Assembly: GCA_050084515.1 (NCBI GenBank)
Contig: CM114271.1
Location: 8,122,001 to 8,186,000, forward strand
Length of the DNA stretch: 64,000 nucleotides
Direction of reading: 5' to 3'
From: Blasia pusilla
Lineage: Eukaryota
Made by a program: the position numbers and the translations under genes. Shown in pieces: positions 17,050 through 64,000 of this stretch (the stretch's first letter is position 1; each line of letters opens with the position of its first letter). Below the pieces are notes generated by a model. The model was not told where the DNA came from and did no database searches. It saw nothing but the letters and a program-made list of their open reading frames with translations.

Positions 17050-17101
17050 TCCAAGAAGATTCCAATGGGAGGAGACTGAGAATGACAATGTGAGAATATT
17101 T

Positions 17102-38628: not shown

Positions 38629-39031
38629 GGATGCAAAATGAGGTTTTAGATTGTACTTTTATTTTTCCTGAACCTTGAGTTTGAGCTTGAACTCTATTCA
38701 GCCCGGGGCAAATGATAGATTTTTTCCAGACCTTGGATGGAAAAAGTGATTGGTTCCACACTTATGATTCCATTGATTTTTCAGTTTTGTATATTTTGTG
38801 CAATTTGCAACCGGTCGAACTGAGATGGGTTGCCAAAATATGGAAGAGAAAAAAAAATGTGGGAGTGCTTAATAACTGAACAAAAAAGTGCAAAAAAATT
38901 CACAAAAAAAGTTTCCTCTCTTCAAAAAAAAGTATCTATTTCGGTTGAGGGTAGTTTCCTCTCTCCTCTCTTCCTCTCTCCTCTCTCCTCTCTCCTCTCT
39001 TCCTCTCTTCCTCTCCTCTTATCGCACCTCC

Positions 39032-39700: not shown

Positions 39701-40519
39701 AGACTTTTCCAGAGTGATAGATGTTACTTGGGGACCATCTGCACTATTCTATAAAATGTTAGAAGAGTTCTTACATTTCACTCTTGTAAGTAATTACATT
39801 CTTCCAATCAAATGTAAATGATATCCTACTCCCTAGAATAAATTCATCCTTCCATAAAATTCAAACCAAATCTATTCATTCTCCATTGAAATTCAATTTC
39901 CCTTTCCATTACATATGAATCAAGGCACCTCTGAATTTCTTTATCGAAAATTTTAAAATCTATAAAAATTTAGTAATACTTATATTCACCTATTATATTA
40001 TTAAATAAAAAAATGAATTAATAAGTAAATTTGGTTTTCTATTCCACCCAAGTCCCCTTCAAATTCTACCCTATGCAATATTGTTCACTAAAAAAAGTTC
40101 ATACATTATTTTCCTTTACAATTCAATTCAAACATATATTTTCCTTCATTAATTTTGGAAAAAAATTCATCCCTTTTCCAATCCCCATCTTTCAATAATT
40201 AAGAGAAAATCGCTTATTTTGATGAGTTAGTAATTTTTAGGAATTAGTAATAAAAAAATTAATTTATATCAAAAAAATCATTCAATTATGGTATCTTCCA
40301 CCTTATCCAAGGATTTATAACCCAAGAGAAAAATTTCATCCATTTCATGAACTCACTTTATGGACAACATTCGTGATCGGCTCACATTCACAAGTTTCCT
40401 TAGTGGAATATTTTGAATTTTTTGAAAACGTCTTACAACAAATGAGGAGTACCCCACAAAACATGTGGATTGACAGGAGCCTAATACTTATGTACATTAC
40501 AAAGATATAAATACCAACT

Positions 40520-43500
40520 CATTCTCTCCAAAATGACCCAACTCCTTGTGGGCATGATGCACCAAACGTGCTCTCTGCAAAGAATGAGGCACTACACGCA
40601 CTCTACCATCCTCCCACACTCGCAACACATGTGTGCCCTCCCACTAGAACGGTCTGGCTTGCTGTAGGATCCGATCCCGCTGTCTAGCACCCATTGTGCT
40701 GGCGACGCTCCTAGTACGTATGTACTCCAAGACCACTCCATCGTTGTGAATGTCTCGGCCACCTATCGTCTCCTCACCGGCCTCTGGATCTAAGGACTCT
40801 CCATCAGATCTCGCCATCAAAGTCTCAGCAATCGGGCTCTCCATAGCCAACAAGCCCAAATAGGTTGACGCATGCTATCCTTGCACCAACTCCTCATCAC
40901 TCTTACCATGCCAATATGCTCTAGTCGTATCTTGCTGACTCAAGCATGGGTTACAGCTCAAACCATCTGCATCCTGGTTGAGCGTCCCAAGTCTATGCAC
41001 CACTTGGAAGTCATACTCCTGCAATAAAAGAGCCCACCTCGCAAGCTTCCTTGTAAGCTTGTTGGACTCCATCAACCACTTAAGTGGTTGATAATCAATA
41101 ATGATGGTAAAGGGATTGCCGAATAGATAACATCTAAAATGTGCGACAACTCACACTGCAGCCAAGCACTCACCCTCATACGAGCTATACTTTGCCTCTC
41201 CAGCATTGTTCGAGCGCTAGCGTAAGCCACCACGAACTCTCTACCATCATCATCATGTTGGGTGAGCACGGCTCCGAGCCCCAACATGCTCCAATCGATA
41301 TGCACCTAGAAAGGATGCCCCCTGATTGGTCTCCTCAATATGGGTACGAACGTCAATCTGTCCTTGAGCATCAGAAATGCTCTCTCTTGCTCATCCTCCT
41401 AGTGCCACTCTTGATCCACCTTGGTCATCAAGATTAGCGGCTTCGCAATCAAACTGAAATCCTTGATATAACGTCGATAGAAGTTTGCCAATCCCATGAA
41501 TGCACAAACTTGACTCACATCTGTAGGGCGTGGAATGCGTGAAATAGCCTCTACGTTTGTCTCTTGCACACCAAGGCCTCCTAGGTATATCGTATGATCC
41601 AAGAACTCAATTTGGCCATAGAAGAACTTGCACTTGCCTGGATGTAGCTTCAGCCCATGTAACTGCAATCGTCAAAATACCTCCTCTAGATGTCGCTCAT
41701 GCTCCTCAACCGTGGCGCCAAAGACAACGATATCCTTAATATAACAACTAGCAAAATCTAGACCTGCCAAGATCCTATCTATGACCCTCTCAAACTCAGC
41801 CGGGGCATTCTTTAACCCGAATGGTAAGAACCGCCACTTGTACAAACAATCCTTCCCGTGAGGATCGATGCCCCAAAATATCCTCTTCTGCCTGTCCTCC
41901 AATGTGATAGGCAGCCGATGGTATGTGGCTCGCAAATCCAATGAACTAAAGACCTTTGCATGCCCAATCGCATCAAAGATATCCTCAGGGATGGGCATGG
42001 CATACCTATTGGACTTCGTCTACCGATTGATAGGTCGGTAATCTCCATACATCCGCCTATCTGTCTAGTTGCCATGCACATCCTTTTTGGCAAGCATGAC
42101 TCCAACCAAGTCTTGGCTCCTACTCTGAATTAGAGCCCTCTCCATGTCAATGTACTTGTATGGTCGTCGAAAGATCGGCGTGTCACTTGAAAACTCAATG
42201 CGGATCCTTGGACCCTTCAGCGTACCCAAATCATGCATACTAATGCAAAACAACTCCTATAACTCCTAAGGAATTGGTGTATCCGGCGCCGCTCTCCTCC
42301 TATCAACTTAGGGCCCATATCTAGCTCCCAAGTCTCCATCGTGACTATGGTAGGACTCTCCGGCGCGAGTGTCAGTGGTTGCTATGGTGCAACCCTGTCT
42401 CGGAAAATAGAACTCTCATCTCCACATACAGTACCCGGAACCACACTCAATGTTGTGGCTATCATCTCCAGGCGTACCTGCAAAACATCCCAAGAAGTCC
42501 AAGGGTGTCTCTCCCGATCACCCCTGGTGTGTTGATCTTCTCGGGTCTCGCCCCCAACTACTGCCTCAACCGTCTCGGTAGGCATGGTGCTCACCAACGC
42601 AACAACTGTGATCTGTCGCATCCTCAAACGATGCTGCTCAGGTACTCCTCAACTAAAAATCCATGTCAAGTAGTTCACGTCTATTGCCTGACCCAAGACA
42701 TGACGTCGTGATGCCTCCGATAGTGATGGTATTGCCATCACTCCTGTGGGGAATCCCATTGCTCGCTCTCGCTGATCAAGATTGGGCTCCACCAACCTCT
42801 ATACTTGGTCATCCTAAACCAAGCCAGGTCTGGCTTCCTTGAATGCATAGGAAGCGGGAAAACTCACCAATGTGGGAAAGGCTGCCCGTGGCCTGCCAAT
42901 CTTGTTGACCATAGTGAACAGAGGTCGATCATCTAGCCTCACTACGTGTGATCGACGGCCTAGATCCAATATAGAATCCACCAACAAATGCGCTCCACTC
43001 TCACATATGCCCTCCGTAACACCTTGTGTGGTACCAAGTTGGTCCACCAAAGATACGGGCGATGTGCTTGTGAACCCACACTCGCCGCATCTAACAACAT
43101 TGTGAGGCTGATCAATGCGCACACCTAATGTGCACTCGTCATCACGCAGGATCTCGAATTGCCCAAAATTGGCACATTCTCCAAAATGTATGTTGGAGAA
43201 CGAGGTTGATACTCACGTAAATGTCGCAAGATCCGCATCATCTCCCAAAACAACCTAGATTGAGTGTCAGCTAACCCGCTACCTCGTCTAGCACTCGATT
43301 GGCCTTGATACGGCCAACCAGCAATGACCAAGTCGATGGTCCCTACCAGCTCCAAGTCCTGCGCCCCCAACAATGAATTGTCCCTCGATAGGGAACTCGG
43401 GTAACCCTGAATGGCGGATGCAGAAAACAAGTCGAGGAAATGGAGGCGTAACAGCGCCACATGGTGAAGTGAAGCGGGCCTCGCAACATCATCAATCTCC

Positions 43501-45060
43501 ACATATAGGTATTGTTGCACGCGCACTCCAGCGTGCAAAACAGCAGCTAACCTAGTGCTGATCCCTCCAAAGAGATCCAACACCCAAATACCCTTCTCTG
43601 GGATGCACCACACAATCGGGGTGGTGTCCAAAGGGGTCATAGCAGCACTCGTGCCTACATGGGATTCCTGTGATCCGTCACACTCTAGTGCAAACGTCTC
43701 GCTCCATGCGGTTTGCACATGCTCAGTGGCTAAGCGTCAAAGCTCCTCAATTGAGCCCCAAAGCGGCAGCTCTCCTCCACGGACTGATGTGGCTACCATG
43801 ACACTACTCTGCATAGAAATGTCAGGAATGGGATTATCCTCTCCATGTCCCTCAATCAAATCATTAGGCCAAGTGATGGCACTGCTAAATGCTACTAAGG
43901 TCGCCATCTCTCTTGGCCGTCGCTCGCTCACTGCACCTGTGAATCGAATGGGTAATGAGCTAAGGCACCCATCACCTCACTGCCATCCTGTAGGACGGTG
44001 ATTCCTCCTAGTAATCCAGGGAAAACCCCATCTGGTATAACACTGCTCCACCAACCAAGATGTCGTAGGACTCTACATCAATCATTATCACCTTGGCTCG
44101 CACCACGGACTCATATGTAGGATGTCCCGGGCGAATCCTCACCACGACCTCTTGTTAGGTGATATATTTTGTGGAACTCGCTCCACCCAAGGATGTCTGT
44201 ATCCGTAATGGACAAAGCTCCACATCGGCTCTCGTCAAGCCCAATCCTCTGAATGACGCTTTCCCCAACATTAGGGGTTGCGCTCTTGAATCCAACAAGA
44301 CACGCTGCGGACTAAAAGCTCTGCCTCATGGACTCACCAACTGGAAGACCTCTCCCCAGTTATCTAGCAAAACAACACCAGGAGAAGCCATGGCATGCTC
44401 TATTGCGGGTCTAGCGGGCATCTCCGCCATCCAAGCAGCTAGAGCCTGCCATGAATCTGACGTGGATGGCCCAAGCATCCGCTCCAAGGGTAGGTCCATC
44501 ACCTCCTCTGCAATCACCTCTGAACGTGATGCAGGAACTCCAACTCCATGCTCACATAGCGTAGCGGCGAGCCAAAAAACCTTGGCGGGCGCACCTCCCA
44601 ACGTCATAACATCAGAAGCAGAAAATAAAGGAGCGCGATACATAACGGTGGCCGCCCCCAACAACATGCTCGACATATGCCCCTCCTGAGCATCAACAAT
44701 AGAAGTTTTCGGATTCACTTCTCCCATCGCCCTCCGTGCTTGCACACCAACAACATCACCAACTCTCTAGGAACTCTGATCAGGCTCCATCGATGGGAGC
44801 CTCATCGCTTCGGACAACGTGAAAGACTGAGGAAGCCTAGTCTATTTCCTGGCTTCCCCTCACTGTGGATCCAACTCTGCGGCTGGTCCACACGTCACAA
44901 CTTCTGTGGCCTCCATCTGGGCAACCCCTCACATCCAACCAGGATCCTCCATATCTTTGGTTGCTCCATATGATGTCGATGCCATGGATGTGGCATCGAG
45001 TAACCTCAATGCCATAGCGAAAAATCTGCTCTTGTAGCTACTGTATCTTAGCAGCCATCC
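40520..45060 (-). mobile_element. Decayed Ty3/Gypsy internal region ordered (gag)-PR-DNMT-RT-RNaseH-(INT start)
   Basis: RVLLDSRAQPL (protease, about 44275-44310); C5-MTase; RT (PFGLKNAPAEF, CYIKDIVVF); RNase H (DWSMLGLGAVLTQ, KLARWALLLQEYDF); HAHKELGHFG; no LTRs seen. Confidence 0.85.
42660..43600 (-). pseudogene. C5-cytosine DNA methyltransferase domain embedded in the retrotransposon polyprotein
   Basis: Motif I VLDLFGGI, II VEID, IV IDLVIAGWP(Y)Q, VI YILENV, IX ERAMGFP, X RRHVLGQAID; motif VIII not found (deletion or frameshift near 43125). Confidence 0.88.
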
Positions 45061-45164
45061 CTATCACCTACCATCATTGGTTGATGAAGAAATTGCAATG
45101 ACGGTGGCGGCAAAACCAAAGTACGTGGTGGCGGTGCAAGTTAGAGAATCAACGATGGTCGTGG

Positions 45165-46486
45165 GTATACTTTGTAGTAACCTTCTCAGCTGTTCGGTAT
45201 GCCCACAATGCCGCGGCGATTTTCATGTCCCAATCATAGGAATACGTTACCGTCAATCGATTCAATATCCGGCACATCAAGCCGTTAGATTTTTCCGTCA
45301 ACCCGTTGGCTTTAGGGTTGTAGGGCGTGGTTTTCCGATGCTTAATGAGAAAGTGGGAAGTGAGAGACTCAATAGTGTTGTTTAAGAAGTGAGTGCCACG
45401 ATCACTTACTAATTCCAATGGGCAGCCATACCGAGTGATAATCATCTCGTATAAAAATTTGGCCACTGCTTCACTATCATCTTTTCGCGTGGCCACCGCC
45501 TCAACCATCTTAGTACAATAGTCGATGGCTATGAGAATATACTTCCGCCGTGTTTGGCGAGTAGCGGGGGAGATAGGGCCCACAAAGTCAATACCCCATT
45601 TTTCAAAAGGAGCTAGGGACATGGTGGGTACCAAAGGCCACCGCGAGGTTGTCTTTGGTCGACCTGCTCTTTGACTGGCATCACAACTCTGGATAAAGTT
45701 ACCTACATCTTTGTACATAGTTGGCCACCAATAACGTGCCGCCAAGATTTTCTTAACGGTATTTTTTACCGCATAGTGTCCACTAGAATCAGTCGTATGC
45801 ATGGCTCTAATGACGTGGGGGATTTCTTCTGCTTCCAAGCATCGTCGATACTCTTCATCTGCACCTAATTTGAATAGGATCCCCTCACATATCTCATATG
45901 GTCCTATCTTATGTAAGAAAACTGCTCGTTCCTCCGGTGTTATAGGGGCAAGAAGTTGCAGAGTAATTAAAAAATGTAAAATATCCTCATAAAAAGATTG
46001 GCACAACCGATCCTCCGTGATCTGGAACAGGTCTTCGTCGGGAAAGGTATCATCGACGGATTGTGTGAGGTCCGCGTTCGTCATCCTCAACCGGGAAAGA
46101 AAATCTGCATTGGTATGAACCTTGTCGGCACGGGTAACGACATTGAATGTGAATTCTTGGAGCAGCAAGATCCATCGCGCAATACGACCTGACAAGTTTG
46201 CCTTCACCATTAATGGTCTGAGTGCGAAATGATCGACAAATTCGTACCCTAATAAATAGTGTCGGAACTTTTTACACAAGAAGACCATGCCTAGCAACTC
46301 TCGTTCGATAGTTGTATATTTTTGTTCCGCTGAAGATAGTTTCTGGCCGGCGTAGTTAACCGGAAAGTCATGTTTGTTTTCATCCAGTTGGCTGAGCACC
46401 ATTCCAATGGCAAACGAGGATGTGTCCACATATACGTGGAAGGGTTTGGTCCAATCAGGGGACCTTAGTACAGGAGCCATTTGCAA
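45165..46486 (-). pseudogene. RNase H + integrase
   Basis: VYVDTSSFAIGMVL, YTTIERELLG, GRIARWILLLQEF, GHY..CDASQ, KWGIDFVGP, LVSDRGTHF, NGLTE. Confidence 0.92.
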
Positions 46487-47500
46487 TGCCCTCTTTAAAG
46501 CGTCAAATGCCGCTTGGCAAGGTGGAGTCCACTCCCATTCGGTAGCTTTTTAAAGTAATGCAGTAAGAGCTCCTGCTTTTACCGCATAATCTCTAATAAA
46601 CCGTCGATAGTATCCGACGTGTCCCAAGAATCCTCTCAATTCTCGGAGATTTGTGGGTGGTTCCAATGCGACGATAATATCCACCTTGGCCTTGTCGACT
46701 TCAATTCCTTGAGCCGACACTCTGTGTCCCAACAAAATCCCTTGTTTCATAGCAATATACGATTTTTCCGGATGAAGGGACAAATGCACTTCGCGACAAC
46801 AAGCGAGGGTTAATTCTAATTTTCCAAGTGTTCGGCCTCTGTATTGAAGATACAAAAATCGTCCAAGAAAATTTCAACAAACTTCCGCAGATACTCTTGG
46901 AAGATGGAGATCATCATTCGTTGGAAGGTAGCTGGGGCATTGCATAACCCAAAGGGCATCACGCGATACGCAAAAGTTCCCTTGTCCGTGGTGAAAGTGG
47001 TGAGGGGGCGATCTTTTTCCCGTATGGATACCTGGTTATAACCCGAGTATCCATCCAAAAAAGTATAACGTTCGTGGCCGGAAACTTTATCCAAAATACT
47101 ATCAGTGAAAGGTAGGGGGTGATGGTCCTTTAAGGTGGCCGCATTCAATTTCCGATAATCCTGGCACACTCTAATTTTTCACGTTTGTTTTTTGGGTACA
47201 ATCACAATGGGAGACACCCACTCGCTACTTAACACCGGATAAATTATTCCTGCCCCGAGACGCTGGTCGATCTCGTCCTTGACTAACAATGAGTACTTCG
47301 GGTTGAGGCGATACTGCCTCATTCGTATCGGGACCACACCTTCTTTTAGGTCAATTCGGTGTTCACCATACCATGCTGGAATACCTGTCATTTCATCCAT
47401 GGAGTATGCAAACACATCCAAATACTCAAACAATAATCTTTTATACTTCATGAGTTCAGTGGGAGACAAATCCGCCGAGAGGCGTAGAGACTTCTGACCT
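46487..47500 (-). pseudogene. Reverse transcriptase (frameshifted)
   Basis: SEWVSPIVIVPKK, CQDYRKLN, LDGYSGYNQV, MPFGLCNAPATFQR, FLDD, LRGFLGHVGYYRRFI. Confidence 0.93.
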
Positions 47501-47636
47501 GTAATTAAGACCTGTATGTAGTCCTTTTCTTGAACCATACTTTTTGTAAACTGGAATGTGCTATGACCCATCTTCTCTTCTTCTCGGGTCGACATCTGTT
47601 TGCTAGGTATCGACTCCTTGTCTATTTCGTAACATT

Positions 47637-48344
47637 CTAAATAATACACATTGGACGAGGTTGCTCTTGATCTGACGTATAGCCTTCGTCGGTCGGTGGC
47701 GTTTCTCCTTGGGGTGGTCGTGATTTCCACGACAACTTGATGAGCCACTTGGAGACCTGGTCCGGAGCTTGGAATGTGAAACGTCGCCTTTTCCAATCCG
47801 TAGTCACTCTCGCACCATACAGCCACGGTCTTCCAATGAGCAAAGGATAGCCAGTGGTTGTTAGGGTTTGCAAGACTAAGTAGTCCAACAGAAATAGCAC
47901 CCCCCCAAGCATGGTCGGGATCTGAGTGAGCTGTCCTAGGGGTTGCTTCCAAGACTTATCCGCAAACCGCAGATACTTCTCGGTGGGCTCGTACTCCGTA
48001 TACCCTAGTGCCCGAGCTGTCTGTTCTGTCATAATGTTAATTCCGCTTCCTGCGTCAATGGGAACCTTCTTAATGGCGTGTCCCTCAATCTCCACCTCTA
48101 CCTCTGGTGCTCCCAAGTCTTCCACTTGGATACGGAACAGCTCCACTACTGGTAGATGCTTTGCAGACTTCTTGGGTTTTTTACGGCTTATCTTCCATTG
48201 TTGCAAAATTTTGCCGTACACCGGGTTATCCATTAATAATTGCAGCAGGGTTATACTGGCCGGGGTTGACGCCATGTCCCTGAGTAAGTCGTAGGCTTCT
48301 AAGACCAGCGGTGACGTCGCGATGGCTTGCACTGCCGGAGCCAT
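47637..48344 (-). pseudogene. Retropepsin aspartic protease region
   Basis: VPIDAGSGINIM and LLIGRPWL motifs. Confidence 0.88.
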
Positions 48345-48769
48345 TCCGGTTCTCGTCTTCTATGTGGTCTGCCTCCCTTTTGGTCCCTGGTCGTGATGCA
48401 CTTGAGCCCGAACCTGGTCTTTGATATCCTGATGGAAGTACTTAGGTGACTTCGATCGAAGGCCGGGTCAACATCGCCTTTTAAGATGGCCTTCCCGGCA
48501 CGGAAGGCGCCGAAAATTTTCGTCTTGGGGTCCTTAGCTTCGCGCAAAGACGAAGCACCTTTCCTTGCCTTGGGGGTCCCCGCGGTCTGACTCTTGGACC
48601 TCGTGGTGACAGCCAGAACGGTTTCTTAGAACTCCTTGGGCCAGTCCGATGATTCTTCGGCGGCCGCTCTGTTTGAGTCTTCCTCCTTGATAGTGACTCG
48701 CCTTGGCCTGGGGGACCCTAACTCTTCCACTCGGACGAGTTGCACATTTATGTCATTCTTGGACTCTAG

Positions 48770-50088
48770 TTAGGCTGTTGGGGTGTTGACATATTTTACC
48801 AACAACCGCGGAACCTTGGGCTCCGGGCATTCCACTGCAGTGTGCCCGCCCTTCTTGCAATTTCCGCACAAGGGATTGAGTCCTACTAGCCGCTTTGGAT
48901 TTGGGCAATTATTAGCCCAATGGTCAACTGCCCCGCAATTATAACAACAATTCCTTTTTATGGGTGGCGTGAAGGCCGCCACGCCCATAATCTGTCTTAG
49001 AGGTCTGTGTTCCCCGTATTCCGGAGGCACATATCGGGTGATCCAACTTTGTCCGGGATTTGGTGGTGGCACACCTTGGATTGCATAGCACCCTTCCCAC
49101 TGTTCGGGTTCATACCACCCTTCTTCTATAGTGGGATCTTCCTGGATCCAACGTAAATCCCTCTGAGTATGGCATTCCTGGGAAGTATGCCCTTGGGTTC
49201 CGCAAGTACTGCACCAGAAGTTGGGCCTCATCAGACCTGGTCGTCTTTTGGGGTCCTTCTGGGCCGCCAGATGTACCTTCAATTCTGCCGTTTGCTTACT
49301 TAGCTCTTCCATGGCCGACTTTCCGGCCTTCCTTGCTGTCCCCCTCACTAGACTTTCCGACTGTTGGGGAAGGTGCTTTGTGGGTCAGGTTTTCCTTCGA
49401 TGCTTGGGAGAGTGGTGGCGCCTACTTTTTCTTTTCCGTTTAGATTTTAAATCTTTTTTAGAGTCCGAGGACTCCGAAGTATCCCCCATAGAGGACTCCG
49501 TGTCTGTGGAAGACGCTTCGTCCTCCAACGAAGCACTAGTTTGCGACGAACCTCGTCGTTGGTGACGCCGTCTTCGTGTTTTACGGGACTTCTCTGAGTC
49601 TTCGTACGCCTCTACGGAGGCTATGACTGCTTCCAAGGAATCTCGTTGGCCCTCGCCCGGCAAGATCGGTCCATTTCTTTGGGCCGATCGACACGAACCA
49701 ATCTACCAATTGCGAGGTAGTAGTGTGTTCCAGTTTATTCACCAGGCTTCGAAACCTTTGTATGTATTCCCGAAGATTTTCCTTCTTTTTACGTTTCAAG
49801 TTGCGAAGCTTTGTAAGAAGCCTGTCCTCAAACTCCAGGTCGTGGAACTCATGTAGGAAGGACTCCAATACCCTTTTCCATGTTTCCGTGACGTCCGCTC
49901 TGAGACCCTCGTACCACTGGCTTGCTCGCTTCTTGAGCAGGCAAGGAAAGACTCGCAACAAATCCTCCTCTGAGCCTTCCCCATTTGCCTTGGCTACATG
50001 GGTAAATTCAAGCACAAAGTTGTCCACTCATCTCGCCGTCCCCCGGCAAAGGTGGGGTACCTTAGCAGCATCTTCTTAGTATTGGCCA
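48770..50088 (-). pseudogene. Gag with three CCHC zinc knuckles (frameshifted)
   Basis: Retrotrans-gag-like RASQWY...ENLREYIQRF; CSTCGTQGHTSQEC, CYNCGAVDHWANNC, CGNCKKGGHTAVEC. Confidence 0.88.
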
Positions 50089-50840
50089 TAGGGAATTCTC
50101 TGCTACTGGGTCCCGGGCTTGATGCTTGGGAGGGAGGAGGTAGCGGCTTCACTCTAGTTGATTTGGTCAGCTCCGCGTCCCCCGACTCCCCAAAGGGGTC
50201 CCAGGTTGACTCTTCGTCCGACTGCAAACTGGAAGGGGACGTAGTGGAGAGTTTGTTCTTGTCTCTCTTCTTGCTCTTGGGCTTCGTGCGAAGACCAAGA
50301 CCAGGAGACAGCCTAGGCGGTCTCCAAGCCGGGTGATCTTCTTGTTGCTTACTGCGTCGATCGGCTCGCTGATCTCTCGAAGAGAGCCGGGAGCCTTCCA
50401 TGAGTCCCTTCTGGGATTCGGGAGCTTGCTTCCGCACCCACGGTCGCAACAAGGTAGGGGTCCATGGAGGGAAATTAAATGTTTCTACTTCCTAAGCCTA
50501 GAGGAGTGTGCCAGGTGCTCTTAATCTTCCTGCCAGGTTTTCCTCCCATAAACAGAAGTATCGGGTCATCACCAAGTACAACTGACGTTCATGGGCGGAG
50601 CACCATTCGGCGACTGGTTTATTGACAAGACTAATTAATTGTTCTATCTTTTCTAGCACCAATGCACCAATGCAGCAAATCGGTTGTTATCTTCCTTCAT
50701 CCATTGTCTGAGGGGGATAGCTAGAGATAGCAGATGGTCTTCAGTAAGAACTAGCTGGTTGGGTCTTCTAGGAGACGAGGCTTCTTTCCCCGCTCCCGGA
50801 TTCCCCATGTGTCTCTCTCCCTTTTCAGCAAAGAATATGA

Positions 50841-52689: not shown

Positions 52690-55077
52690 GGGGGCTGGTA
52701 TTCTGACGGGAGAGAGGAGAGTCTCTCTTCAAAAAAAGGGGCCAAATCCCTAATCTCTCTTCAAAACTTTATTCACTTTTTGAGGTTTCTCCCCTACTTC
52801 AAATGCAAGAAATTTTTAAAAGTGAGTAAGAAGTGCACCACTTTGGGTGAAAAACTAACCACATTTTCTCAGACCAAGATGTGAAGATAGAAATGTTAAT
52901 GTCAACAATTAATCATGAAAGTTAATGAGAGTTCATAATCTCTCTCCTGATAGAGACACCAACCCACCATCATCAATGAATTTATAGGTGGATTTACTAA
53001 TAAAAACCACTTTGAAAATACGCTACAATGTTGAACCTGTGTTAGGAAATACGCTATAGTGGGCTCTTTATCCAAGACTCCCACCCTCATCCCTAACACT
53101 TCGTGGAAATCTAACAACCAGTCATGACAGACTTGTGATTCCGACGGGACTACAATGAAGGAAACGAGAAGGAGGAGGCTGGGAGTTGCAAAGCATGAAT
53201 TGAAAATTAGGGTAATAAATTGTAAAAAATGGCCATGTTATTCATTTCCGTAAGGGAATTATAGTACCGAAGCTTGCAACCTTTGAGAAAAACAAATTTT
53301 CCAGAAGTATGCTTTGAAGGAAATGGGGGAGCGAGAGGAAACGATGTTAGCATTCTTCCCATGTTGCATACCATCTTCCAAAGTTTTGGAAACTTCACAT
53401 CCATTTGAAGAAGGATCTTGACAAGTGGTTGTATTCTGCTCTGCAACCCATCAGACTTCGACAAGTTGGAAGATATAACAAATCCATGGTGCGAACGAAA
53501 ACAAAATCATTAAAAGCGCTTGCAACCTGTCGGAATCCGACATCTTGCAAGCACTATCTTTTTTGTCTTTATCTTCCAACCCGTCGGAATACAACAGGTT
53601 GCAAGTTAAAGACAAAAAAGACAAAGTTGTTACCAAGGTTTTCCTCTCACAAGTTTGAACCTGTGCAACCCATTTGAATCAGACTTGTTGCAAGATGTGG
53701 CATCAATCAAGAAGATGTTCCTAGAGTCACCTTAGAGTAGGCATGCATGAAAGAGCTGGGCTAGTATTGTGGCAGATTTCATGAGTGTACTGGAGGATGT
53801 CAAAAGTGGAAGATGCAAAAGAGCCAAATCAAGAATAGAAAACCCAAAAAATGAAACGATGAGAAGGAAATCAACTAGATTCATGCAACTTTTCAGATTA
53901 AGAGCCAATCAACCAGAGTCATGCAACCTGTCGGAATCCGTGAAGTTATAGGAATCCAAGAGATCTCAAAAATAATGTGTTAGAGAAGAATGGTTGGAAG
54001 ATAATGGGGGAAGGAGGAGAAATTGAAGAAGCTTTCCAGAATGCTTGAAAGGATGGACTAACAGGAAAAGAAAATCACTCAAGCAGCCAGCCTCTCGAAA
54101 TCTAACAGGTTGCCTGACTAGATGATAGAAAAAGGGGTTAAAAAAGGTTGCAAGAGAGTTTCGGTTGTAACTTCGTCAACCTGGTCTACAAATATCACAA
54201 GACACGAGAATTTGTGCATACATCTTTAGTCATCCAAGTTCCATTTTTGGCTTGCAACGTGTTGACGTCCGACGAGTTCACAGAAACAAAATCACATACC
54301 ATTTAAGTCAATCAAGAAAACTTACAAACATGCTCCAGAGGGGAGAAATTTGAAGAGAAGAAACAATTTCAACTCTTACAACCTGTCAAAATTGGACAAG
54401 TTGCAAACTTGGTCCTCGGTTTGCAACCCATTGGAATCCAACATGTTGCAAACCTGGTCCAAGACCTGCAACTTGTCGGAATCTGACAAGTTGCAAACAT
54501 GGTCCATGGTTTCCAACCCGTCGGAATTCGACAGGTTGCAAACCTGATGGAAGGTCTACAACTTGTCTGGATCCGACAAGTTGCTTGGTCCTTGCTTTGC
54601 AACCCGTTGGAATCCAACAGGCTGCAAACTTGGGCTCTGGATGCAATCCGTCGGAATCCAACAGGTTGCAAACTTGGGCCGTGGTTTGCAACCCGTCGGA
54701 ATCCAACAAGTTGCAAAATTTTCCGTGGTTTGCAACCCGTCAAAATTCGACGGGTTGTAAAATAAAGACCATCTGGTAGAGATATCAAGACACAATCAAG
54801 AACGAGCTTGACCAGACATAGAAGCACAACAATTCATAAACTCTTCAAAAACCATCGGTGTAGGAAAATCATAAGTCCTTTATTGCATCCGAGGAAAACT
54901 TGGAAATTTACATTTCCTCTAGTCTATAATTTTTTTCATCCGTGTCATCTACAAATTTACTCCTAACTCTCTCAGGTTCTTGTACAAAAGGAATGTCTTG
55001 GGATACAAGTGGCTCCTCTAGCTGATTGTAGATGGGGATTGAGAATGTAGGGAAATTTGAGAGCCTTGGGCCCCCCC
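52690..55077 (+). mobile_element. Left arm of a diverged MULE subfamily (copy E), interrupted by copy D
   Basis: Same terminus GGGGGCTGGTATTCTGACGGGAGAGAGGAGAGTCTCTCTTCAAAAAAAGGGGCCAAATCC; palindrome variants; 54850-55077 homologous to 4145-4372. Confidence 0.8.
54375..54760. repeat. Near-tandem palindrome array (about 40-46 bp period) in copy E
   Basis: tgcaacccgtcggaatccaacaagttgca-type units with 12-18 bp spacers. Confidence 0.85.
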
Positions 55078-56097
55078 GGGGGCTAGTATTATGACAGGAG
55101 AGAGTAAGAGAGGAGAGGAAGAGAGGAAGAGAGGAGAGTCTCTCTTAAAGAAAAAAGGCCAAATCTGCCTCCTCTCTTCAAAACTTTTTGACATATTTGA
55201 AATTTTTTTTGCTTTAAAATTCAGGAAATCTTTAGAAGAGAGTATTTAGTGGTCCACATTTGGCCCTAAAAAAACCTCCTCTTTCCTGGGGGCGAGAAAA
55301 AATGAGACATCATAAGACCACCCTAAACATTTTTCCATCACTCTCCATGTGAGCCTAAGTTTCTTAACATTCCCTGTCTCGGTCAACAAAAAGCAGTGCC
55401 CTTGGTATTTTTGTTGGAGGACCACCCGGATGGGTACCTCTCTTTTTGCAGGGATTGTTGCCTGCATCATGGACTCCCCTAAATTACCCCATAACCAACT
55501 TTCTGTCGGTTATGAATGATGTCTGCTCAAGACCAACTTTCTGAAATGTGAACAAATCAGATCCTAAGGCTGAGAAAACGAGAAGCTGCACCCCTCCCAA
55601 CCCGTAAGAAAGCTCACCATAAGAAAGGAAAAGATTTTTAGAAGTGATTTTCTTCCACCCTGCACCCACGACGATCTAACGGGTTGGGAATCCGAAATGG
55701 CAATCCGACAGGTAGTAGGAATCCTGCACATCTTAGACAAGAAAACAAGCCTAGAACTGGTTGGACGAATGAAGGGGAACGAGCCAAAAGTCAAGAAGCC
55801 CGCCACAATGCGTCAGAAGTTGGTCTCACAGGGATAGAGTCCGATCACTCAAGCAGTCAACCTGTCGGAATCCGACAGGTTGCTTGGAAATGGTTAAAAA
55901 GTTGCAGTGGGCATAAAGCAAAAAGTTGCAACCCGTCGGAATCATACGGGTTGCAGAATTGTAATTCTGAGTAGCTAAAAGAACACAATCCACAAGTCCA
56001 AAAACATATTCCAGCAAACTTTTACAAACACCATTATGGGTTGGAAAAATCTAGTCCTTAATTACCTCCGAAGGAACCTCGGAAATGTACATTTCAC

Positions 56098-59000
56098 CTA
56101 GTCTATGATTTCTTCAGCATCGTCATCTACAAATTTACTCCTAACTCTCCTCGGTGACACTACCAAAGGAATGTCCTGGGATTCAAGTGGCTCCTCTGGC
56201 CGATTGTAGACGGGGATCGAAAATGTTGGCGAATTCAAGAGCCTTGGCCCCCCCCTAGGTACACCATAACGGTCCCATGTAACCTGTCTCGAGTCCCACC
56301 GCCTTCCTCGGCAGTATACCTTGTACGCTCTGCAATGTGACACCCATCCAATATCAATATCTGCTCCGTCCTTGGTAATACCACTATGGCAACCGCACAG
56401 GTAGAAGGAATCCAACACGTCTGAGAGAAGAAAAGAAGCCTCGCGCCGCTTTTACGAGTTGAGGGAAGGTGCCAAGGGAAGAAGCCCGCCAGATCGCTCG
56501 ATCCGAAAGGGTCGATCGGCAACTGTCGGAATCGACAGTTGCCTGGAGGTGGTAAAAAGGGTCTAGTGGTCAAAAAGCGAAAAGTTGCAAGGAGGAGAAA
56601 TCCGACGGGTTGCAGTGGTCATAAAGTGAAAATTGCAAGCAGGAGAAATCCGACGGGTTGCAAAGTAGAAGACCGTGGAGTACATAGACGATCACATTCG
56701 AAAAGACAAAATGATCAGCAAACATTTACAAGCACCACCATCGATCGAAAAAATCTTCTGCTTTATATCATCCGAAAAAAGCTCGGAACTGTATATTTGA
56801 TCTATTCTATGAAATCTTTTGCCAAATTATCAAAAAACTTCCTACTCCGAACGCTGCAGTCAAGCTGGGTTGTTGAGTTCTTTGAACTCACTCGTCATCG
56901 TCCGAGAGCTCTTGCAAAATCACTTTCGGCCTTGCCCTCCCGATTTTGGGAATCGTTGGAAGTGACGATGGAGTCACTACCAAGGGTGGCTCTGGAACCG
57001 GAGCTCTCGGCTTTGGTGGAGAGTTGTACGCCCCAACGAGCCTTTTGTATTCTGCCTTTGCCTCCTTGTAAAGGTCAAACAGTTCCTGCCTTCCCTTGAG
57101 GCAGAGAATGTTCCTGCCACTCTGCCAGGCGCCTCTGATACTCGCCCCTGAAAGGCCCACTAAGTCGAACACCAAGTCACCCGGCCTTGAGCAGAGCACA
57201 TGAGCGTTTGCATCAGGGCTGGCAACTTTTCCCTTCCTCCCAGAAGTGGGGTACTGTCTTGCATGTAAATTCCCGGGGGGGAATTGTACAAACTATCTAA
57301 GTTGTACCCATCTGAGCATGGATCCACAGGATCCTGGATCTTGAACACCTGGAAATTGTGCTCGGGCGAACGGCAAAGCGACACGAGGGAGTGGTCCATC
57401 CAGTAAATCAGACGAAACAATGTCAGAAACTAAAGAAGTCGCCTTGAGAAGATTTTCAATAACTGACTTTGGATCAACCTGTCGGAGTCCGACGGATTGT
57501 TTTGTCCCGGACCAACCCGTCGGAACCCGACGGGTTGCAGTTGCTTTTGGGTTTTCCAAGTTGATTTTGGTTTTCGGATGCAACCCGTCGGAAGGCGACG
57601 GGTTTTGGCCTCAGACCAGCCCATGCTCGCCTGAGCAACCGCCGATAGCAACCCGTCGCTATTAGGCGGGTTGCATCAAAACAAAATCAGCGCAACCCGT
57701 CGGGTTCCGGCGGGTTGCGTGTACACCGCGTTTTCCCTGTGTATGTGGGAAAGATGCAACCCGTCGGAAACCGATGGGTTGCTCTTAGCCGAGCATGGGC
57801 TGCTCTAAGCCAGCAACCCGTCGCCTTCCGACGGGTTGCTCACGGACAAAAAAAACCCAGATTGACTCTCATTCTACACATCATTATAAGATAATTGAAA
57901 TTATTGTACATGAATTGAGCCTTACCCGAATCTCACTCGTCGCGGATCGGAGTGGATACTCATTTTTTATGATCCACGATTGTGCCGTCCTCCACTTTAG
58001 CGACCTCTTGACGCACTGGAGGTTGAAGAGCTCGTCCTCGCTCCCTCCAATCAACACCAAGAAGCAGCCCCTGTCACTCAGATAGGCGTCTGCAAAGGAG
58101 AACAAAAGTGCAATCTGGTCATAAGTGAGCGGCAGATTCCACTCAGGTACCTCGTCCGCCGGATTTTCGCCCCAAAGTTGCAACCCCGAGGGCACATCGG
58201 CGATCAAGAGATCCACCGCAACCTCTTCCACCACTCCATTCACCGTCCAAGCAGCGTGCCCGTTTCGTTGGAGCTTCCTTCCCAGCGTTGTCAATTTTTC
58301 GATGGCAGTTGTTGACGCTTGAGAAGCGAAGTCGTTTCACTCATCCGATAAAGAAAGAGGTGAATCAAGGAGGACGCTTGTCCGGTCGTTGTTTGTCTGT
58401 GTCTTCCCAAGGATGATGGGCTGTATTCTCCTTGGGGCAACCCGGGCACCTCTCGCTTCCGCTTCTCCCAGTCTGGGGACGGCTTGTCGGGGTTTCTATG
58501 ACCTCGGATTCTGGTGGCGTTTTCTTCGCCGAGGACCTGGTCCGACCCTCTCTCCCTGCTCGTCCGGACGATTCCGCCTCTCGCCTCTCATCTTCAGGCT
58601 CTCTTTGGGAAGTCTCGGCCTCTGAATTTTTCCCTCCCCTCGCCTTGCCTTTGAGACCTTGTGGATTTGTCTTTGGCTGTCCGGACCTTGGAAGCCAACT
58701 CGGTGTCTCGTGGGCTGCTCTTCTGCATCTCCTCCGAAGAAGTCTTCAGGCTGGACGAAATTGGGGATGTCGTCTTGTCCTGAGGCCACTGCATCATGAA
58801 GCACTCGTAAGTCCTTATCCGTGATGTCTTCAGGGTCGTTGAAGTCGAGCCAAATGGGGCAATTCTCCACCTCCCAATCCGACATGTGCTGACCCATCTC
58901 CACGACGTACATGGAGAATGTCTCTGCATCCGGCGGCGAAGCCCACAATTTCAAGGCTGCCGGTAATTTTCCCCACGTACCTGCGTTCTTACACTGGACG

Positions 59001-61895
59001 AGGTACCTGAATACCATCCATTGGGCAGCCTTTAGTCGGACATTATCGGCCGTCTGCTCCTGTAGATCTCGCTTCTTCTTCGCTTGATCCCGTTTGTTAC
59101 CCTCTACTTCTTCGTCAAGCTTTGCCTGAGGGAGGACGCAAACCTTGAACATGGTCTTGAATCCAGGGTTCTTGGTTGGCTTGTCCCGGATGTCGTCGAG
59201 CCAAACCTCATAATCTCCAGAACTTTCAAGGTTTGCTTCCGGCGGAATGGGCTCTAATCTTCTGAGCTCCGCTTGCACCGTCCAAAGACGGACTTCGATT
59301 ACCGCAACGCGCCCGGAACGACCATTCGCGTAGCCAATGCGAGATCATCGGATCGGACACACCGGAGGATGGTGTGCCGCCCTCTTCGGGCCTCTCGAGC
59401 CCTCGGGGCGATTTTCATCGGTCGTATCCTCTTGAACTCGCTAATCCCGGATAACGCAAAACGATGCACGCGATCCGGCGACACTTTCTCCCCAATCCGA
59501 CCATGCGGATCTTCATCCCTCTTCGGCCGACGCTTGATAATCGCCTTGAGCTCCTTGTAGAACTCGGACCAAGTTCGGGGTTGAGAATCTTGATGTATCG
59601 CGCATCTTGCTCGCCGTGTATTTTGTTGCAGCGAATCAAAGAACTTGATGAATTTGGCGCGCTCGAGGCAGATACCTTCTCCCTCCGCTCGGCTCGATTA
59701 ACGCTTTTCTTGGCCTGTATCTTCGACCAGCAAAGGATGGTTCTGTTGCATCTTGAGAAATAAACTTGTTCGCCCAAGTTTTTCTTCTTAATCTAAGCAC
59801 CCTTTGCAAGCATCGATTGACGAGGGCATCGCCAAGAACCCCAGTACTCTCCGGGTGCGTCGTAGCACCTTCCTCACCCGATCGCGATCCTGGATCCAAT
59901 GGTCGGTGACATTCCCCTCCGATACAATCCCGCACATCCAAACTCAACCCGTCAGGAAATTACATGGGTTCCTGCAACCCGTCGGACTCCGACGGGTCGC
60001 GTAAATCAGGGTCGGATTCTAGCAACAAGCTAAATGATGCAACCCGTCGGAGTCCGACGGTTTGCATTGAGATTTGCTAATGCCAGGTAAGCAACTCGTC
60101 GGACTCCGACCGGTTGCTGGACTGCACGCTTTCTCGGATGTTTTTAAGATTGCAACTCGCCGGACTCCGGCGGGTTCCGGATCGCACGCTTTTTTCGGAT
60201 GTTTTTAAGATTGCAACTTCGTCGGACTCGGCGACTTGTTTGATTGAACATAGATTTCACTAGTTTTTGGCCCAAAGCAAACCGTCGGAGTCCGACGGGT
60301 TGCTCGATAGGCCGCCTTGTGAGGTTGTTTTTTTAAGAATGCAACTCGTCGGACTCCGACGAGTTGCTCGAGTGACTGCAGTTTAGAAGATTTTTGCCCC
60401 AAAGCAACCCGTCGGACTCCGACGGGTTGCACTCTTCAAAAAACATCCTCACAAGGCGGCCTATCGAGCAACCTGTCGGACTCCGACGGTTTGCTTTGGG
60501 CCAAAAACTAGTTAAATCTATGTTCCATCAAACAAGTCGTCGGAGTCCGACGAGTTGCAATCTTAAAAAAACATCCGGAAAAGCGTGCAGTCTAGCAACC
60601 CATCGGAGTCCGACGAGTTGCTTTCTGCCTAAACAAACCTAACCCATTCATCAATCGAGCAACTCGTCGGAGTCCGACGAGTTGCGAAAGTGTTAAAGAT
60701 ACTCACGTGTTCATGGCATGCATTGCCATCTCCACCGTCGCCATGTGATGAGGGTATGGGTGAAGGACCACTGCCTTCACGCAGAAATGTGCCTCCAATG
60801 AGTTGGGGCGCTCCTCCGCAAACTTGGTCCACGCCATGAACCTGTGATTTCCATCCCGAGATGAAGAAATGCGATTCCTCATCCGGCTGAATTCCGTGCC
60901 CTCAACTTGCCTTTCAAGTCTGGTCTCGCATCCTCGAATGTGTCAAGATTTTCCAAGTCCTCCTCGGTAACGAGCTTGGGTTCCATGCTCGTCGAAGGCT
61001 GAACATAGAAGGGAGGAAAGTGCCCACGAGGGGATCTTTGTCGCGGCCGATTATTTTAGCTTTGCGATGTCCTCGTCGGACTGTATTTCGCGCACGTATT
61101 CCATTGTCCTTAATCGGCAGAGGGGCGTTGTGGCCCTCCATGAGTGCCATCTGCTTTACCACATGTCAGAACCGGGACAAGAGGAATAAGGTGCACTAAA
61201 ATCCCAATGAATTGCAATTCACATAATTAAAAAAACCGAGAACCTCTCTTACCCGCTCGAAAATGGAGTCGGTTTCTTGACCAGCTAACTTGTCTGAGAC
61301 AGGGGCTGGCAAATCGACCGGGAACTCATCGATCCAATAGAGGTCAATGTCCTCCGCCGGGCTTGGAGTCGAGAATGACCGCTCTCCGGCTTCTTCGGCC
61401 ATGTCCACCATCTCCACGCTGGCGGTCCTCATGACCTCGTCGTCATCGATTTGAACTGGTGTTGTTTCCACTATGTTGATTGTGTCCCCGGACTTCGTGG
61501 GGGACATTTCCCGCATCTCAACACTTGCTATTGGACGAGCTGGGCTATCGTCAATGGCTATCGCTTTTTCCCGCCCGCTTTAGCCCAGTCGCCCTCCTCA
61601 CGCGGCGCCCAGGCGCTTCTTTTCTCTCTTTTCATCGGCGATCCTTTTCTTCAAGGCCTGCGGCGTCTCGGCCTCTTCGTTCGTTTATCTAGCGCCGCTT
61701 GAACACGTCTCGCCGAAGCACTTGGTTGTGCATCTCCGCTTCCCTTTCCGCTCCTCGATTTCCTGCTTTGCCTAATTTCATTCGCGAACGAGGCCAGGAG
61801 AAGCGACGCAGAGTCCTAATGGACTTGGGAGTGAAGCTCCCAGACTTGTTGGCTTGTGTTTTTTTCCTCGTCATTTTTGCCGGAAATGCCTCCAC
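56098..61895 (-). pseudogene. ParB-MTase accessory gene (copy D)
   Basis: DLLIADVPSG (57884-58294), CSRPGDLVFDLVGLSGASIRGAWQSGRNILCL (56888-57199), frameshifted ParB exon at about 60710-61165. Confidence 0.7.
59970..60690. repeat. 27-bp palindrome array (intron, copy D)
   Basis: Perfect palindrome GCAACCCGTCGGA-C-TCCGACGGGTTGC at 60404-60430. Confidence 0.92.
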
Positions 61896-62239
61896 CTATG
61901 TCCACGACAAATCCCTTGATCAGTCGCCTTGCTGATGTCGAGATGGGAGCTCGTCTCGCCTTGATGGTTAGCTCGAATCGTCCCGATATCGTTCGGTCGA
62001 ACCGTCTCGCTCTCGTTCCCTCCTATCGACTCGCGATGTGTCGCCGCGTGAAGTGCCCCTTCGTATCTGATCAGCTGCTGCGCGGGAGAGTGAGGAGTGA
62101 GGAATGAAGATCACGAAATGAGAAACCGGAAATGAGCGATTTCTGCCCTATTTATACTTTTCTAGCCGTTGGGCTGACCGTTGGGTCCCGTCGTCCTTTT
62201 GACGGCGACGTGCCGGATGTTACGGAAGTCCGAATGTGA

Positions 62240-62965
62240 AAAATCGCAACCCGTTGGAGTCCAACAAGTTGCGCGGCTCCGCCATCTTGTGTCCGTCGCC
62301 ACGTGCGCGAGCAACCCGTCGGAGACCGACGGGTTGAGCGGCTCCGTCGTCTTCGGAAAAGAACGCGAGGTTCCCGCGCAACCCGTCGGAGACCGACATG
62401 TTGCGCGCCTCCGCCATCCTGGGTACGTCGCCACGTGCGCAAGCAACCCGTCAGAGACCGACAGGTTGAGTGCCTCCGTCGTCTTCGGAAAACAACGCGA
62501 GGTACCCGCGCAACCTGTCGGAGCCCGACATGTTGCGCGCCTCCGCCGTGTTTGGGACGGGAACTGGACGTTTCTTGGGCAATCCGTCGGAGACCGTTGG
62601 GTTGCACGCTTCCCTCATCGAGGGTTAGGAACGAGGGCTTCCCGTGCAAGTCGTCGGAGTCTGGCTGGCTGCACCACAAGGCGAGTCCCTTGCGCAACCC
62701 GTTAGAGGGCAACGGGTTGCACGCCTCGCCTCTTTGGGCTAAAAGGCGACGCACCCGCGGAACTCGAAGAGAACAGACGGTTTGCACGCCTCCGGCATCT
62801 TCGGGCAAGAAGGATCGGTATCCAAGCAACTCGTCGGAGAGCGACGGGTTGCTCACTTTGACAATGTTTAGCAGAAGCCTGCAACCCGTCCGATGCCGAC
62901 TGGTTGCAGGCTTCGGTTAGCTTCGGGTAATTTCGGAGTTACCACGACTCCGACGGGTTCCAAGT
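62240..62965. repeat. Palindrome array in the bidirectional promoter (copy D)
   Basis: gcaacccgtcggagaccgacgggttg units between the two TATA boxes. Confidence 0.85.
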
Positions 62966-63173
62966 GTGATGCGCAACCCTCTGCTTCCCAAATCCGGTAA
63001 CATATTGCAACAGAATTGAATGTGTTACGGTGGATCCATTGTGTCGACAATGTCACCCACCGAATTCATCTTGTCGGTAAAAAAATGTCAGAGTATCTGT
63101 TTCCTATTCACTATAAATTAAATATTCTCATTCTCATTCTCATTCTCGTCTCCTCCCGTTGGAATCTTCTTGA

Positions 63174-64000
63174 ATGGATAATTATGTTAAGCTCACTTGT
63201 GGCGGTCATCCGTGCCCTTCCTCAATCGGAAATCATTCGACCCCAAGCTCGTGAGTCTTTCATAGTAGTGGATGAAAATTTTCTGTCTGTTCGATTTCTT
63301 CTTCAAATTGGAACCATCTTTGTATCCAAAGATGTTAGGGTGGACGGTACGGAAGACATAATAGGTGAGATGGCCCAGCCAGTGACCTCAGACCGTAAAG
63401 TATGGAATCTCCTACCTCTACCAAATGGTCAATACAGAGTTTACGGCCTGCCCCTGAATTCGTCTGTTTCCCAAGTAGACGGTCTAGAATTTCCTAGTGC
63501 TCCAAGCTCTACGTTTGCAACTCCAAGCTCTGCAGATCCGGCTTCGACTCCAACTTTGCACGCTCGTGACAATGTTGTTTTTCCAGAAGAGATTCCGGAT
63601 GTTATCAACCTCAGTGGATCTGTCAGGCACCAATCGAGCCCTCTGTCCGCCTACTCTTTCCTCTTGCGAGTATCAGGCAATAGTTTGCTTTCGTCTCTGC
63701 CCTTGAAAATGTTCAAGCACATTCTTGTTGACGAGCTGCCGCCCACGTACGATGGTAATTGCATTTTTGAGTTGCCTCCACTTGCTGCTCATGCTCAAAA
63801 GAAGGATGGAGGATGCCTGAAGGGTATGGACAAAAAGTCTGATTGTCATGGATGGTGCAGGCTTCAACGGACCAGTGCTTCCATCCCAGATGGTCCTTGG
63901 ATTGTCTCCCGCCGCCAATGCGTGGGAGCCTTGGAGTGTAGAAGTCCAGCATGCCCGTATCTAGAGCGCAACGGGCGAGTCAATACGTCGCAATTCCCCC
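63174..64000 (+). pseudogene. 5' part of GCM/MULE transposase (copy D), cut by the window end
   Basis: MDNYVKLTCG start; matches copy A 10211-11040. Confidence 0.8.

Follow-up and report, generated by a model that had tools for sequence, protein, structure and literature searches.

The current study concerns a 27-bp palindrome that recurs many times in a 64,000-nt stretch of the Blasia pusilla genome (GCA_050084515.1, contig CM114271.1, positions 8,122,001-8,186,000 of the forward strand), the whole of which is referred to below as the window. The palindrome, here termed the core, is confirmed to be real and, within the window, specific to one transposon family. The best reading of its carrier is a single high-copy family of ~10-kb DDE (Mutator-like) DNA transposons, four copies of which (A to D) lie in the window. 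The cores are putative elements that probably serve DNA-level recognition or form hairpins, and the predicted role that we tentatively favor, at a probability of roughly 40%, is that of a family-specific cis-element acting at the DNA level, laid out in repeat-spacer cassettes and most likely recognized by a protein of the element itself.

The core follows the palindromic consensus GCAACCCGTCGGA-N-TCCGACGGGTTGC, and the error-free copy at 60404-60430 to which a first-pass annotation of this DNA had pointed is indeed the only exact one in the window. At <=3 mismatches there are 65 matches, compared to none in 100 dinucleotide-preserving shuffles, whereas a limit of <=6 mismatches yields 128 non-overlapping 27-mers over the whole window. 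Four copies of the element hold 108 of these (A 23, B 27, C 26, and D 32) and 20 lie outside of them, so the description of dozens of copies per element was accurate. The arm variants named at the outset likewise exist, namely GCAACTCG..CGAGTTGC at 19560 and 60341 and GCAACCTG..CAGGTTGC at 30437. When the two halves are sought separately at <=2 mismatches, 124 left and 123 right half-sites are found, 91 of which are paired; the spacing is 15 (i.e. a length of 27 bp) in 88 pairs and 14 in the other 3, which bears out the constant length that had been reported. Information content ranges from 0.84 to 1.93 bits per core position, drops to 0.07 bits at the central base, and is <=0.26 bits at all flanking positions. 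This abrupt loss of information at the flanks of an informative core marks the core as a discrete 27-bp unit. The suggestion that the central 1-3 bases vary freely holds mainly for a single base, but not for three, because the positions beside the center are still fairly conserved (position 13 is A in 106/127 and position 15 is T in 96/127). Folded as DNA, a single core forms a hairpin with a 12-bp stem (-15.2 kcal/mol, z = -7.2).

A self-comparison of the window reveals the four copies of one ~10.1-kb element, which are 88-94% identical. Copy C (28907-39031, forward strand) is the sole complete copy at ~10.1 kb. Copy A (3215 to ~14530, forward strand) has an approximate right end and no target duplication was recognized for it, copy B (15591-25024, reverse strand) is inverted and truncated inside the transposase gene, and copy D (55078-64000, forward strand) is cut by the end of the window, also inside the transposase gene. 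Copy C sits in a ~180-bp satellite unit and is bordered by a 9-10 bp target-site duplication, (C)CTTGGGGAC; it splits this tandem satellite into two parts (28400-28907 and 39031-39621), and the joined flanks read as uninterrupted units. The duplication, which is checkable in one of the four copies (C), fits the ~8-11 bp criterion for Mutator-like elements (MULEs). The element ends are GA-rich and complementary over about 35-60 bp, with imperfections at the very tips. Summed DNA-read depth over the element is very high, while RNA-read cover of its exons is thin. In copy A, the transposase gene (10611-12226, forward strand) encodes a Cys/His-rich N-terminal part and a DDE-like part, and a library of 1.8 billion proteins contains 115 relatives of its product at E<=1e-3, the best being 32-36% identical; four relatives are named, from two liverworts. 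Pfam, including the MULE DDE family PF10551, gave no family for the open reading frames (ORFs) of the window or for 14+6 transposase relatives, even at E<=10, and two word-index searches for the transposase family returned no match. The label Mutator-like is given on account of the length of the target duplication, the language-model neighbors of the transposase (MULE/ZSWIM clusters, 0.84-0.89), and a D..D(FMAD)..CxxH layout discerned by eye in its alignment.

Within the element, the placement of cores is strongly skewed. Coding-like segments make up 40% of the element length, yet they overlap none of the 108 cores, as opposed to ~43 expected at random, and no core lies in the 21,266 bp of the window that are unrelated to the family. 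The clustering in introns and intergenic DNA and the avoidance of exons described by the first-pass annotation are therefore correct, and the motif is not equally common in unrelated repeats of the window. The array originally flagged, at 59974-60685 of copy D, comprises 11 cores at ~64-bp spacing (starts at 59974, 60039, 60091, 60152, 60277, 60341, 60404, 60468, 60532, 60595, and 60659) plus a decayed core near 60215, with spacers of several types, some in inverted order. It is wholly contained in an intron (59930-60706, reverse strand) of a second gene of the element, which is described below. An RNA joint from 59928 to 60706 (a 1-base shift is possible) is supported by 2+3+2 reads in three runs (X19-X21) with the first mate on the forward strand; its orientation is that of the second gene and the intron measures 777 nt. 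Read on the minus strand, the intron of copy A begins with GT and ends with AG, whereas in copy D the donor GT is intact and the acceptor AG has become GG. Together, the splice reads and the GT..AG ends indicate that the flagged array is an intron and is spliced out. A second array, with a ~67-bp period, places 10 cores at 62246-62907 of copy D between the divergent transposase and second genes, and has orthologues at 33332-34029 (C) and 17319-17981 (B), but is deleted in A at ~10034-10043. A cluster of 7 cores at 57474-57839 of copy D lies between second-gene exons 57884-58336 and 56888-57292, with orthologues at 5623-5833 (A), 22218-22591 (B), and 31387-31508 (C); RNA depth is ~0 in the bin 57462-57759. 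Cores with the center AAT occupy the left part of copy D (55857-56661, with starts at 55857, 55928, 56587, and 56635; orthologues at 3984-4788 in A, 23437-24252 in B, and 29758-30533 in C). Finally, a ~55-bp array of 6 cores is found at 12358-12630 of copy A, 3' of the last transposase-homologous residue (12226), with an orthologue at 36901-37072 in copy C.

The 20 cores outside of the four copies are also largely tied to the same family. An older fragment of the family at 53443-54758 carries 11 decayed cores with 3-6 mismatches, 7 of which form an array with a ~45-bp period; its segment 54838-55077 is ~80% identical to 56016-56255 of copy D, which lies beside or inside this fragment. Six others, at 15043-15402, are located beside short family fragments. 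The last three are decayed cores (4-6 mismatches) at 9-179, where no similarity to the four copies is recognizable, and they probably represent another family fragment that is cut by the window edge.

A further difference separates the cores from the DNA between them. Among the units of an array, cores are 78-87% identical and spacers 31-70%, and this is the case in every array. When spacers are compared in an orientation-aware manner, core identity exceeds spacer identity in 124/146 unit pairs, and cores still average 0.75 identity where spacers have reached the random level of 0.48. Between orthologous copies, the picture is different: in 16 gap-free core-spacer-core blocks, divergence is 7.9% for cores and 8.5% for spacers (p=0.69). 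An apparent spacer excess between copies (14.2% vs 8.5% for cores) was traced to misaligned units and is not evidence of constraint. As to whether cores decay at a neutral rate, a point on which the first-pass annotation had staked its interpretation, they do so between orthologous copies, where they decay like spacers, but within arrays they stay more alike. Since the core and the spacer of a unit have passed through the same duplications, and since spacers do not mutate unusually fast once the element has inserted, the contrast between core and spacer arose in the active lineage, and it must reflect either selection on cores or homogenization limited to cores.

The two arms of the palindrome do not change independently. 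Among the 128 instances, complementary changes in both arms number 41, compared to 19.6 expected from arm shuffling (0/5000 shuffles reach 41), while a pair-counting tool yields 39 vs 20.3+-3.6 (0/500 shuffles) with 10-22 for slid-partner controls. The covariation test against a deamination null that had been called for gives the same answer, as mirror pairs are in excess (35 vs 13.8 expected), whereas non-mirror pairs of the same hot positions are not (51 vs 55.8). Broken down by subset, observed and expected mirror doubles are 8/3.9 in A, 8/3.1 in B, 6/4.5 in C, 8/3.2 in D, and 11/6.2 in the others. The coupling signal comes entirely from pairs 6/22, 7/21, and 10/18, where the changes are C>T/G>A. 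Its specificity for mirror positions rejects a null of simple deamination heterogeneity, i.e. uneven methylation among units. Despite this, paired cells amount to 83.8% vs 83.0% after shuffling, meaning that net pairing is hardly above chance. Moreover, orthology and tandem duplication link the instances to one another, which leaves few independent double-change events; the variants altered in both arms that had first drawn attention are thus ~2-fold above chance, but many are orthologous or paralogous copies of a few events.

Events inferred at orthologous sites include 61 single pair-breaking changes, 14 that appear to restore pairing, and 5 complementary doubles vs 1.25 expected (p=0.007). 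Two of these five (8314 in A and 33667 in C) look like misaligned paralogues. Of the restoring changes, 8/14 fall in copy C, which is the outgroup and leaves their direction ambiguous, and their rate at mismatched cells (14/22) matches a transition-rich null. What remains are three clean, lineage-specific doubles, all T10/A18, at 62246 (D) and at 17784 and 17400 (B). Exon divergence between the copies (6.6-9.0%) resembles that of non-coding DNA (5.8-9.6%), indicating exons without constraint. As the T10/A18 doubles arose in decaying copies, they argue for a mutational process of arm copying, such as hairpin-templated correction, rather than for selection, and we consider that the mirror doubles point to hairpin-templated arm correction. 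A suitable mechanism is established: quasipalindrome template switching copies one arm from the other and perfects imperfect palindromes. By contrast, a symmetric double mutant of a duplex dimer site would amount to two bad half-sites, and such a site does not predict arm covariation. The covariation accordingly speaks for a hairpin or cruciform state and not for a parS-type duplex site, contrary to one of the readings first offered. Of the two mutational explanations offered at that time, symmetric deamination fails in its simple form owing to the mirror specificity, while arm conversion gains support from the T10/A18 doubles in decaying copies. The broader statement that symmetry and spacing are maintained can be upheld for the constant length, the dyad, and the excess of mirror doubles, but neither the net pairing nor the imperfect ancestral cores, which are discussed below, agree with it.

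Based upon these features, we favor the protein-recognized cis-element for the following reasons: 1) the cores have a fixed size, 2) their edges are sharp, 3) cores are conserved over spacers, 4) they are positioned in the promoter region and introns, and 5) there is a precedent in the Muta1 transposon, which is considered at the end. In each core, two 12-13-bp arms would flank a single free base as a dyad that is able to extrude as a hairpin with a 12-bp stem. Such cores would be supplied in 5-6 non-coding clusters per element: three within the second gene, in introns or in gaps between exons, one intergenic, one after the transposase frame, and one near the right end. Cores would have been kept alike in the active lineage while spacers drifted to near-random similarity, arrays would grow, shrink, and invert by exchange between cores, and the arms would be partly co-corrected by templating within the palindrome. 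The presumed role is to provide, in many copies, cis-sites at which a protein encoded by the element would sense the palindromic pattern. Candidate binders are the Cys/His-rich N-terminal domain of the transposase and the product of the second gene, and the binder would control the divergent promoter and/or assemble a transposition complex.

Several observations weigh against this favored reading. Transposases must bind at the terminal repeats, but the GA-rich repeats contain neither a core nor a half-site. The location earlier described as subterminal applies to one core about 190-220 bp from the right end (14297 and 38807), but not to the left end, where the first cluster starts ~770 bp inward. 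Neither cores nor exons are constrained between the four copies, and therefore selection is not directly visible there. Inferred ancestral cores were already imperfect, having 989 paired and 181 mismatched of 1170 cells, or ~2/13 pairs. Copy A is without the intergenic array and copy C without several units, an argument that is weak insofar as these copies may be dead. Nearly all 26 positions are conserved, which resembles copying by descent and not a pattern of protein contacts, and the least conserved positions are methylatable C/G. Furthermore, 80 related loci (870 kb), gathered with a single-protein transposase query and representing distant transposase relatives, contain no motif at <=5 mismatches. 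Nor do they contain a recurring palindrome or a 12-mer that occurs >=4 times in both orientations. It follows from the absence of the motif at these loci that the cores are a family-specific acquisition and not a feature of the wider transposase family. A motif scan of a metagenome contig collection gave 0 matches, and in the literature searched, palindromic cores of this kind are not described for a bryophyte or a Mutator-like element.

Nearly as likely as the favored reading is that the cores form a non-functional, self-propagating hairpin minisatellite, in which concerted evolution of the cores and quasipalindrome arm correction proceed with no benefit to the element. Replication stalling, slippage, unequal exchange, strand switching, and short-tract conversion would drive the process, which would spread in DNA that is free of coding constraint. 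The turnover of the arrays is readily accommodated. Where copies differ in unit number, the breakpoints of gain and loss lie inside cores, the periods vary from array to array (45, 55, 64, and 67 bp), one array is an inverted duplication, and arrays are dispensable in some copies. The clean mirror doubles in decaying copies, the near-random net pairing, a core conservation profile that mirrors mutability, and the absence of the motif from the 80 related loci are equally in line with a minisatellite. While this explains both instability and mirror changes, it does not explain why conservation is restricted to the cores. Conversion confined to 27 bp would need to hold cores at ~0.75-0.87 identity while the adjoining spacers reach the random level, and 27 bp of homology is a poor recombination substrate. 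The seeding of the same core at 5-6 places with unrelated spacers is left unexplained as well.

An action at the RNA level is unlikely. The cores would then function as pre-mRNA hairpins, and a long inverted repeat would give rise to double-stranded RNA and to small RNAs that silence all copies, in the manner of Mu killer. Certainly, the flagged intron is both transcribed and spliced, and at 60089-60623 its core-spacer units are arranged as such an inverted repeat, a structure shared by copies A, B, and D. The inner arms (60229-60368 and 60403-60542, 140 nt) are 93% complementary and the outer arms (60089-60145 and 60567-60623) 91%. As RNA, the intron folds at -512 kcal/mol compared to -243+-8 when shuffled (z = -34), forming a hairpin of ~535 nt. 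However, this array is the only one that is an inverted repeat, the 12-bp stems of single cores are too short for dicing, and the intergenic array is not clearly transcribed (depth ~0 in bins 62230-62825). In addition, G.U cells are not above A.C cells in the RNA sense, either for the second gene (32 vs 36) or for the transposase gene (7 vs 10). Symmetry that is blind to strand and lacks an RNA-sense bias fits a property of the DNA, and the RNA hairpin proposed by the first-pass annotation is disfavored on the same grounds. No Rfam model was matched at gathering score anywhere in the window.

Three other RNA signals were encountered in copy D. Reads at 60326-60371 (5, 13-15, and 5-7 in three runs) consist of one core and a few flanking bases followed by foreign sequence, which resembles the spacer type of the flagged array and is oriented opposite to the second gene. 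Transcription of a related core-spacer array located elsewhere in the genome exceeds that of the element's exons. A joint from 58242 to 63243 (3 reads, one run) skips 5000 bases and ends in CC..CC; it could be a transcribed, deleted derivative copy. The joint from 56375 to 56879 (6+8+1 reads) was rejected as an intron, since its TA..GT ends on copy D are non-canonical, and it may represent either the splice of a diverged copy or a deletion.

The second gene is best preserved in copy B (19039-23289, forward strand) and occupies 55900-62100 (reverse strand) in copy D, with core arrays in its introns. It runs on the strand opposite to the transposase gene, such that the two genes are divergent. 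Exon 22732-23289 of copy B encodes the S-adenosylmethionine-binding part of a domain resembling beta-class N6/N4 DNA methyltransferases. Its matches in PHROGs are phage DNA-methyltransferase families (phrog_6952, E=9e-6; phrog_3008, E=2.6e-5), those to Pfam N6_N4_Mtase (E=9.6e-4) and M.RsrI (E=0.029) being sub-threshold and weak, respectively. An upstream exon, for which the domain search gave no match, reads by eye DLLIAD[LV]PSG at the place of the DPPY-type motif, for which reason the domain is possibly inactive. For the first large exon (19039-19542), ParB-like neighbors exist in a protein atlas (0.94-0.96), including one cluster with ParB_N in 11% of its members. This exon had no sequence match in Pfam, PHROGs, NCBIfam, or the PDB, its AlphaFold model is unusable (predicted local distance difference test score of 34.7), and its one relative, 34% identical, is without a Pfam family. 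Among the 80 related loci, 3 (L058-L060) include a decayed, stop-containing relative of this first exon, located upstream on the opposite strand. No ParA-type ATPase ORF turned up in the ORF surveys, which did not include a dedicated search.

More doubtful still than an RNA-level element is that the cores are the cognate sites of this second protein, in which ParB-like and N6/N4 methyltransferase-like parts of bacterial or phage type are combined, the arrays being sopC/parS-like or a methylation-marked platform. If so, the element would possess a platform in its promoter and introns with which to mark or organize its own DNA, or else to escape or attract host silencing. The center of the core (positions 12-16, e.g. 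60415-60419) reads GANTC in the consensus, with the free base as N. GANTC is the sequence recognized by CcrM/HinfI-type enzymes, which belong to the class of methylases that the second gene resembles. It is treated here as no more than a lead: 62/128 cores have this center, and outside of them the pentamer shows no enrichment (255 observed vs 249 expected). The ParB-like resemblance is likewise a lead, and the arm covariation is not what a dimeric duplex site predicts. One report deals with eukaryotic adenine methylases linked to phage ParB loci (PMC4738411).

Least probable of all is that the cores are what remains of a very small palindromic or foldback mobile element (a micro miniature inverted-repeat transposable element, or micro-MITE, with the arms as its terminal repeats) whose nested insertions were later amplified locally. 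The discrete unit with sharp edges and unrelated flanks and the foldback-like larger structure would be consistent with it, as would the RNA reads in which a core is joined to foreign flanks that originate elsewhere in the genome (loose ends at 60326 and 60371), but the cores have no target-site duplication (no repeated dinucleotide in their low-information flanks), all assignable cores of the window are tied to one family and none lies in other DNA, the foreign RNA flanks resemble the flagged array's own spacer type, and we know of no 27-bp eukaryotic mobile element.

Some further observations relate to the transposase gene and to the remainder of the window. Two transposase relatives (P0056 and P0043) match the N-terminal part of the transposase and then DNA past the 55-bp array, at 12679-12795 and 13229-13774 in copy A and at 37121-37417 and 37733-38056 in copy C, the DDE part being skipped. 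The downstream pieces may constitute an alternative C-terminal exon set, giving two products from one gene, as is the case for En/Spm. Ty3/gypsy-type remains lie in 40000-50500, including reverse transcriptase-ribonuclease H and integrase in ORF 45149-46549 (reverse strand), and an integrase zinc-binding domain of the same type is encoded at 2729-3352 (reverse strand). A DUF659 (hAT-associated) ORF is located at 25749-26447. None of these three regions contains a core.

If the favored reading is correct and the cores are recognized by a protein, the family would be an example of a DNA transposon whose cis-sites are distributed across introns and a divergent promoter instead of being confined to its ends, and it would provide a handle on the self-regulation of a large, high-copy bryophyte element. 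If the cores are neutral, they would instead illustrate how one palindromic core can seed several minisatellites as well as a long intronic hairpin, and thereby how a transposon can give rise to satellites and to triggers of small RNAs. In the lineage-specific mirror changes, hairpin-templated correction of arms has left a natural record in the nuclear genome of a eukaryote, and this record could be measured over thousands of copies. Separately, the second gene, being methyltransferase-like, bears on how DNA methylases of bacterial type have spread among eukaryotes.

When compared to known systems, the cores exhibit partial resemblance to several. Short motifs repeated within DNA transposons are familiar from En/Spm, with 12-bp TnpA motifs, and from Ac, with hexamers. 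A study of the MULE Muta1 describes a transposase that binds tandem subterminal repeats, with more binding to more copies, and reports that restoring the palindromic pattern of the terminal motif increases transposase binding (PMC5499845). The present family is similar in that a short motif occurs many times inside of a DNA transposon. However, the motifs of Muta1, En/Spm, and Ac are 10-12 bp long and lie within the terminal 150-300 bp, whereas the present core is 27 bp long and found outside of the terminal repeats, in introns, in the promoter region between the two genes, and at 0.8-1.6 kb inward of the left end. Transposase-binding subterminal repeats require a motif inside or beside the terminal repeats at both ends, and the present cores are not placed in this way. 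Quasipalindrome template switching fits the T10/A18 doubles and could account for the symmetry, but not for the occurrence of the same sequence across different arrays. Foldback structures and minisatellites internal to transposable elements can seed satellites, and like these the present family has tandem subrepeats that vary in copy number and are laid out as long inverted repeats. Unlike foldback elements, its inverted repeat is internal, in an intron, instead of terminal, and the same core is found in arrays with unrelated spacers. The bacterial centromere arrays, sopC of plasmid F and parS, are tandem units with a palindromic core. The likeness lies in the palindromic core within tandem units, here beside a gene with a ParB-like hint; the differences are that the present system belongs to a eukaryotic transposon, that its ParB fold and helix-turn-helix could not be confirmed, and that its arm covariation is not what a duplex parS site would predict. 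Finally, the short interrupted repeat cassettes (SIRC) of Arabidopsis combine short repeats with diverse spacers; their authors relate them to the way MITEs are organized internally, and they are frequent in mobile elements (PMC10342631). SIRC are described there as direct repeats distributed genome-wide, whereas the repeat described here is a palindrome that, in the window, belongs to one autonomous family.

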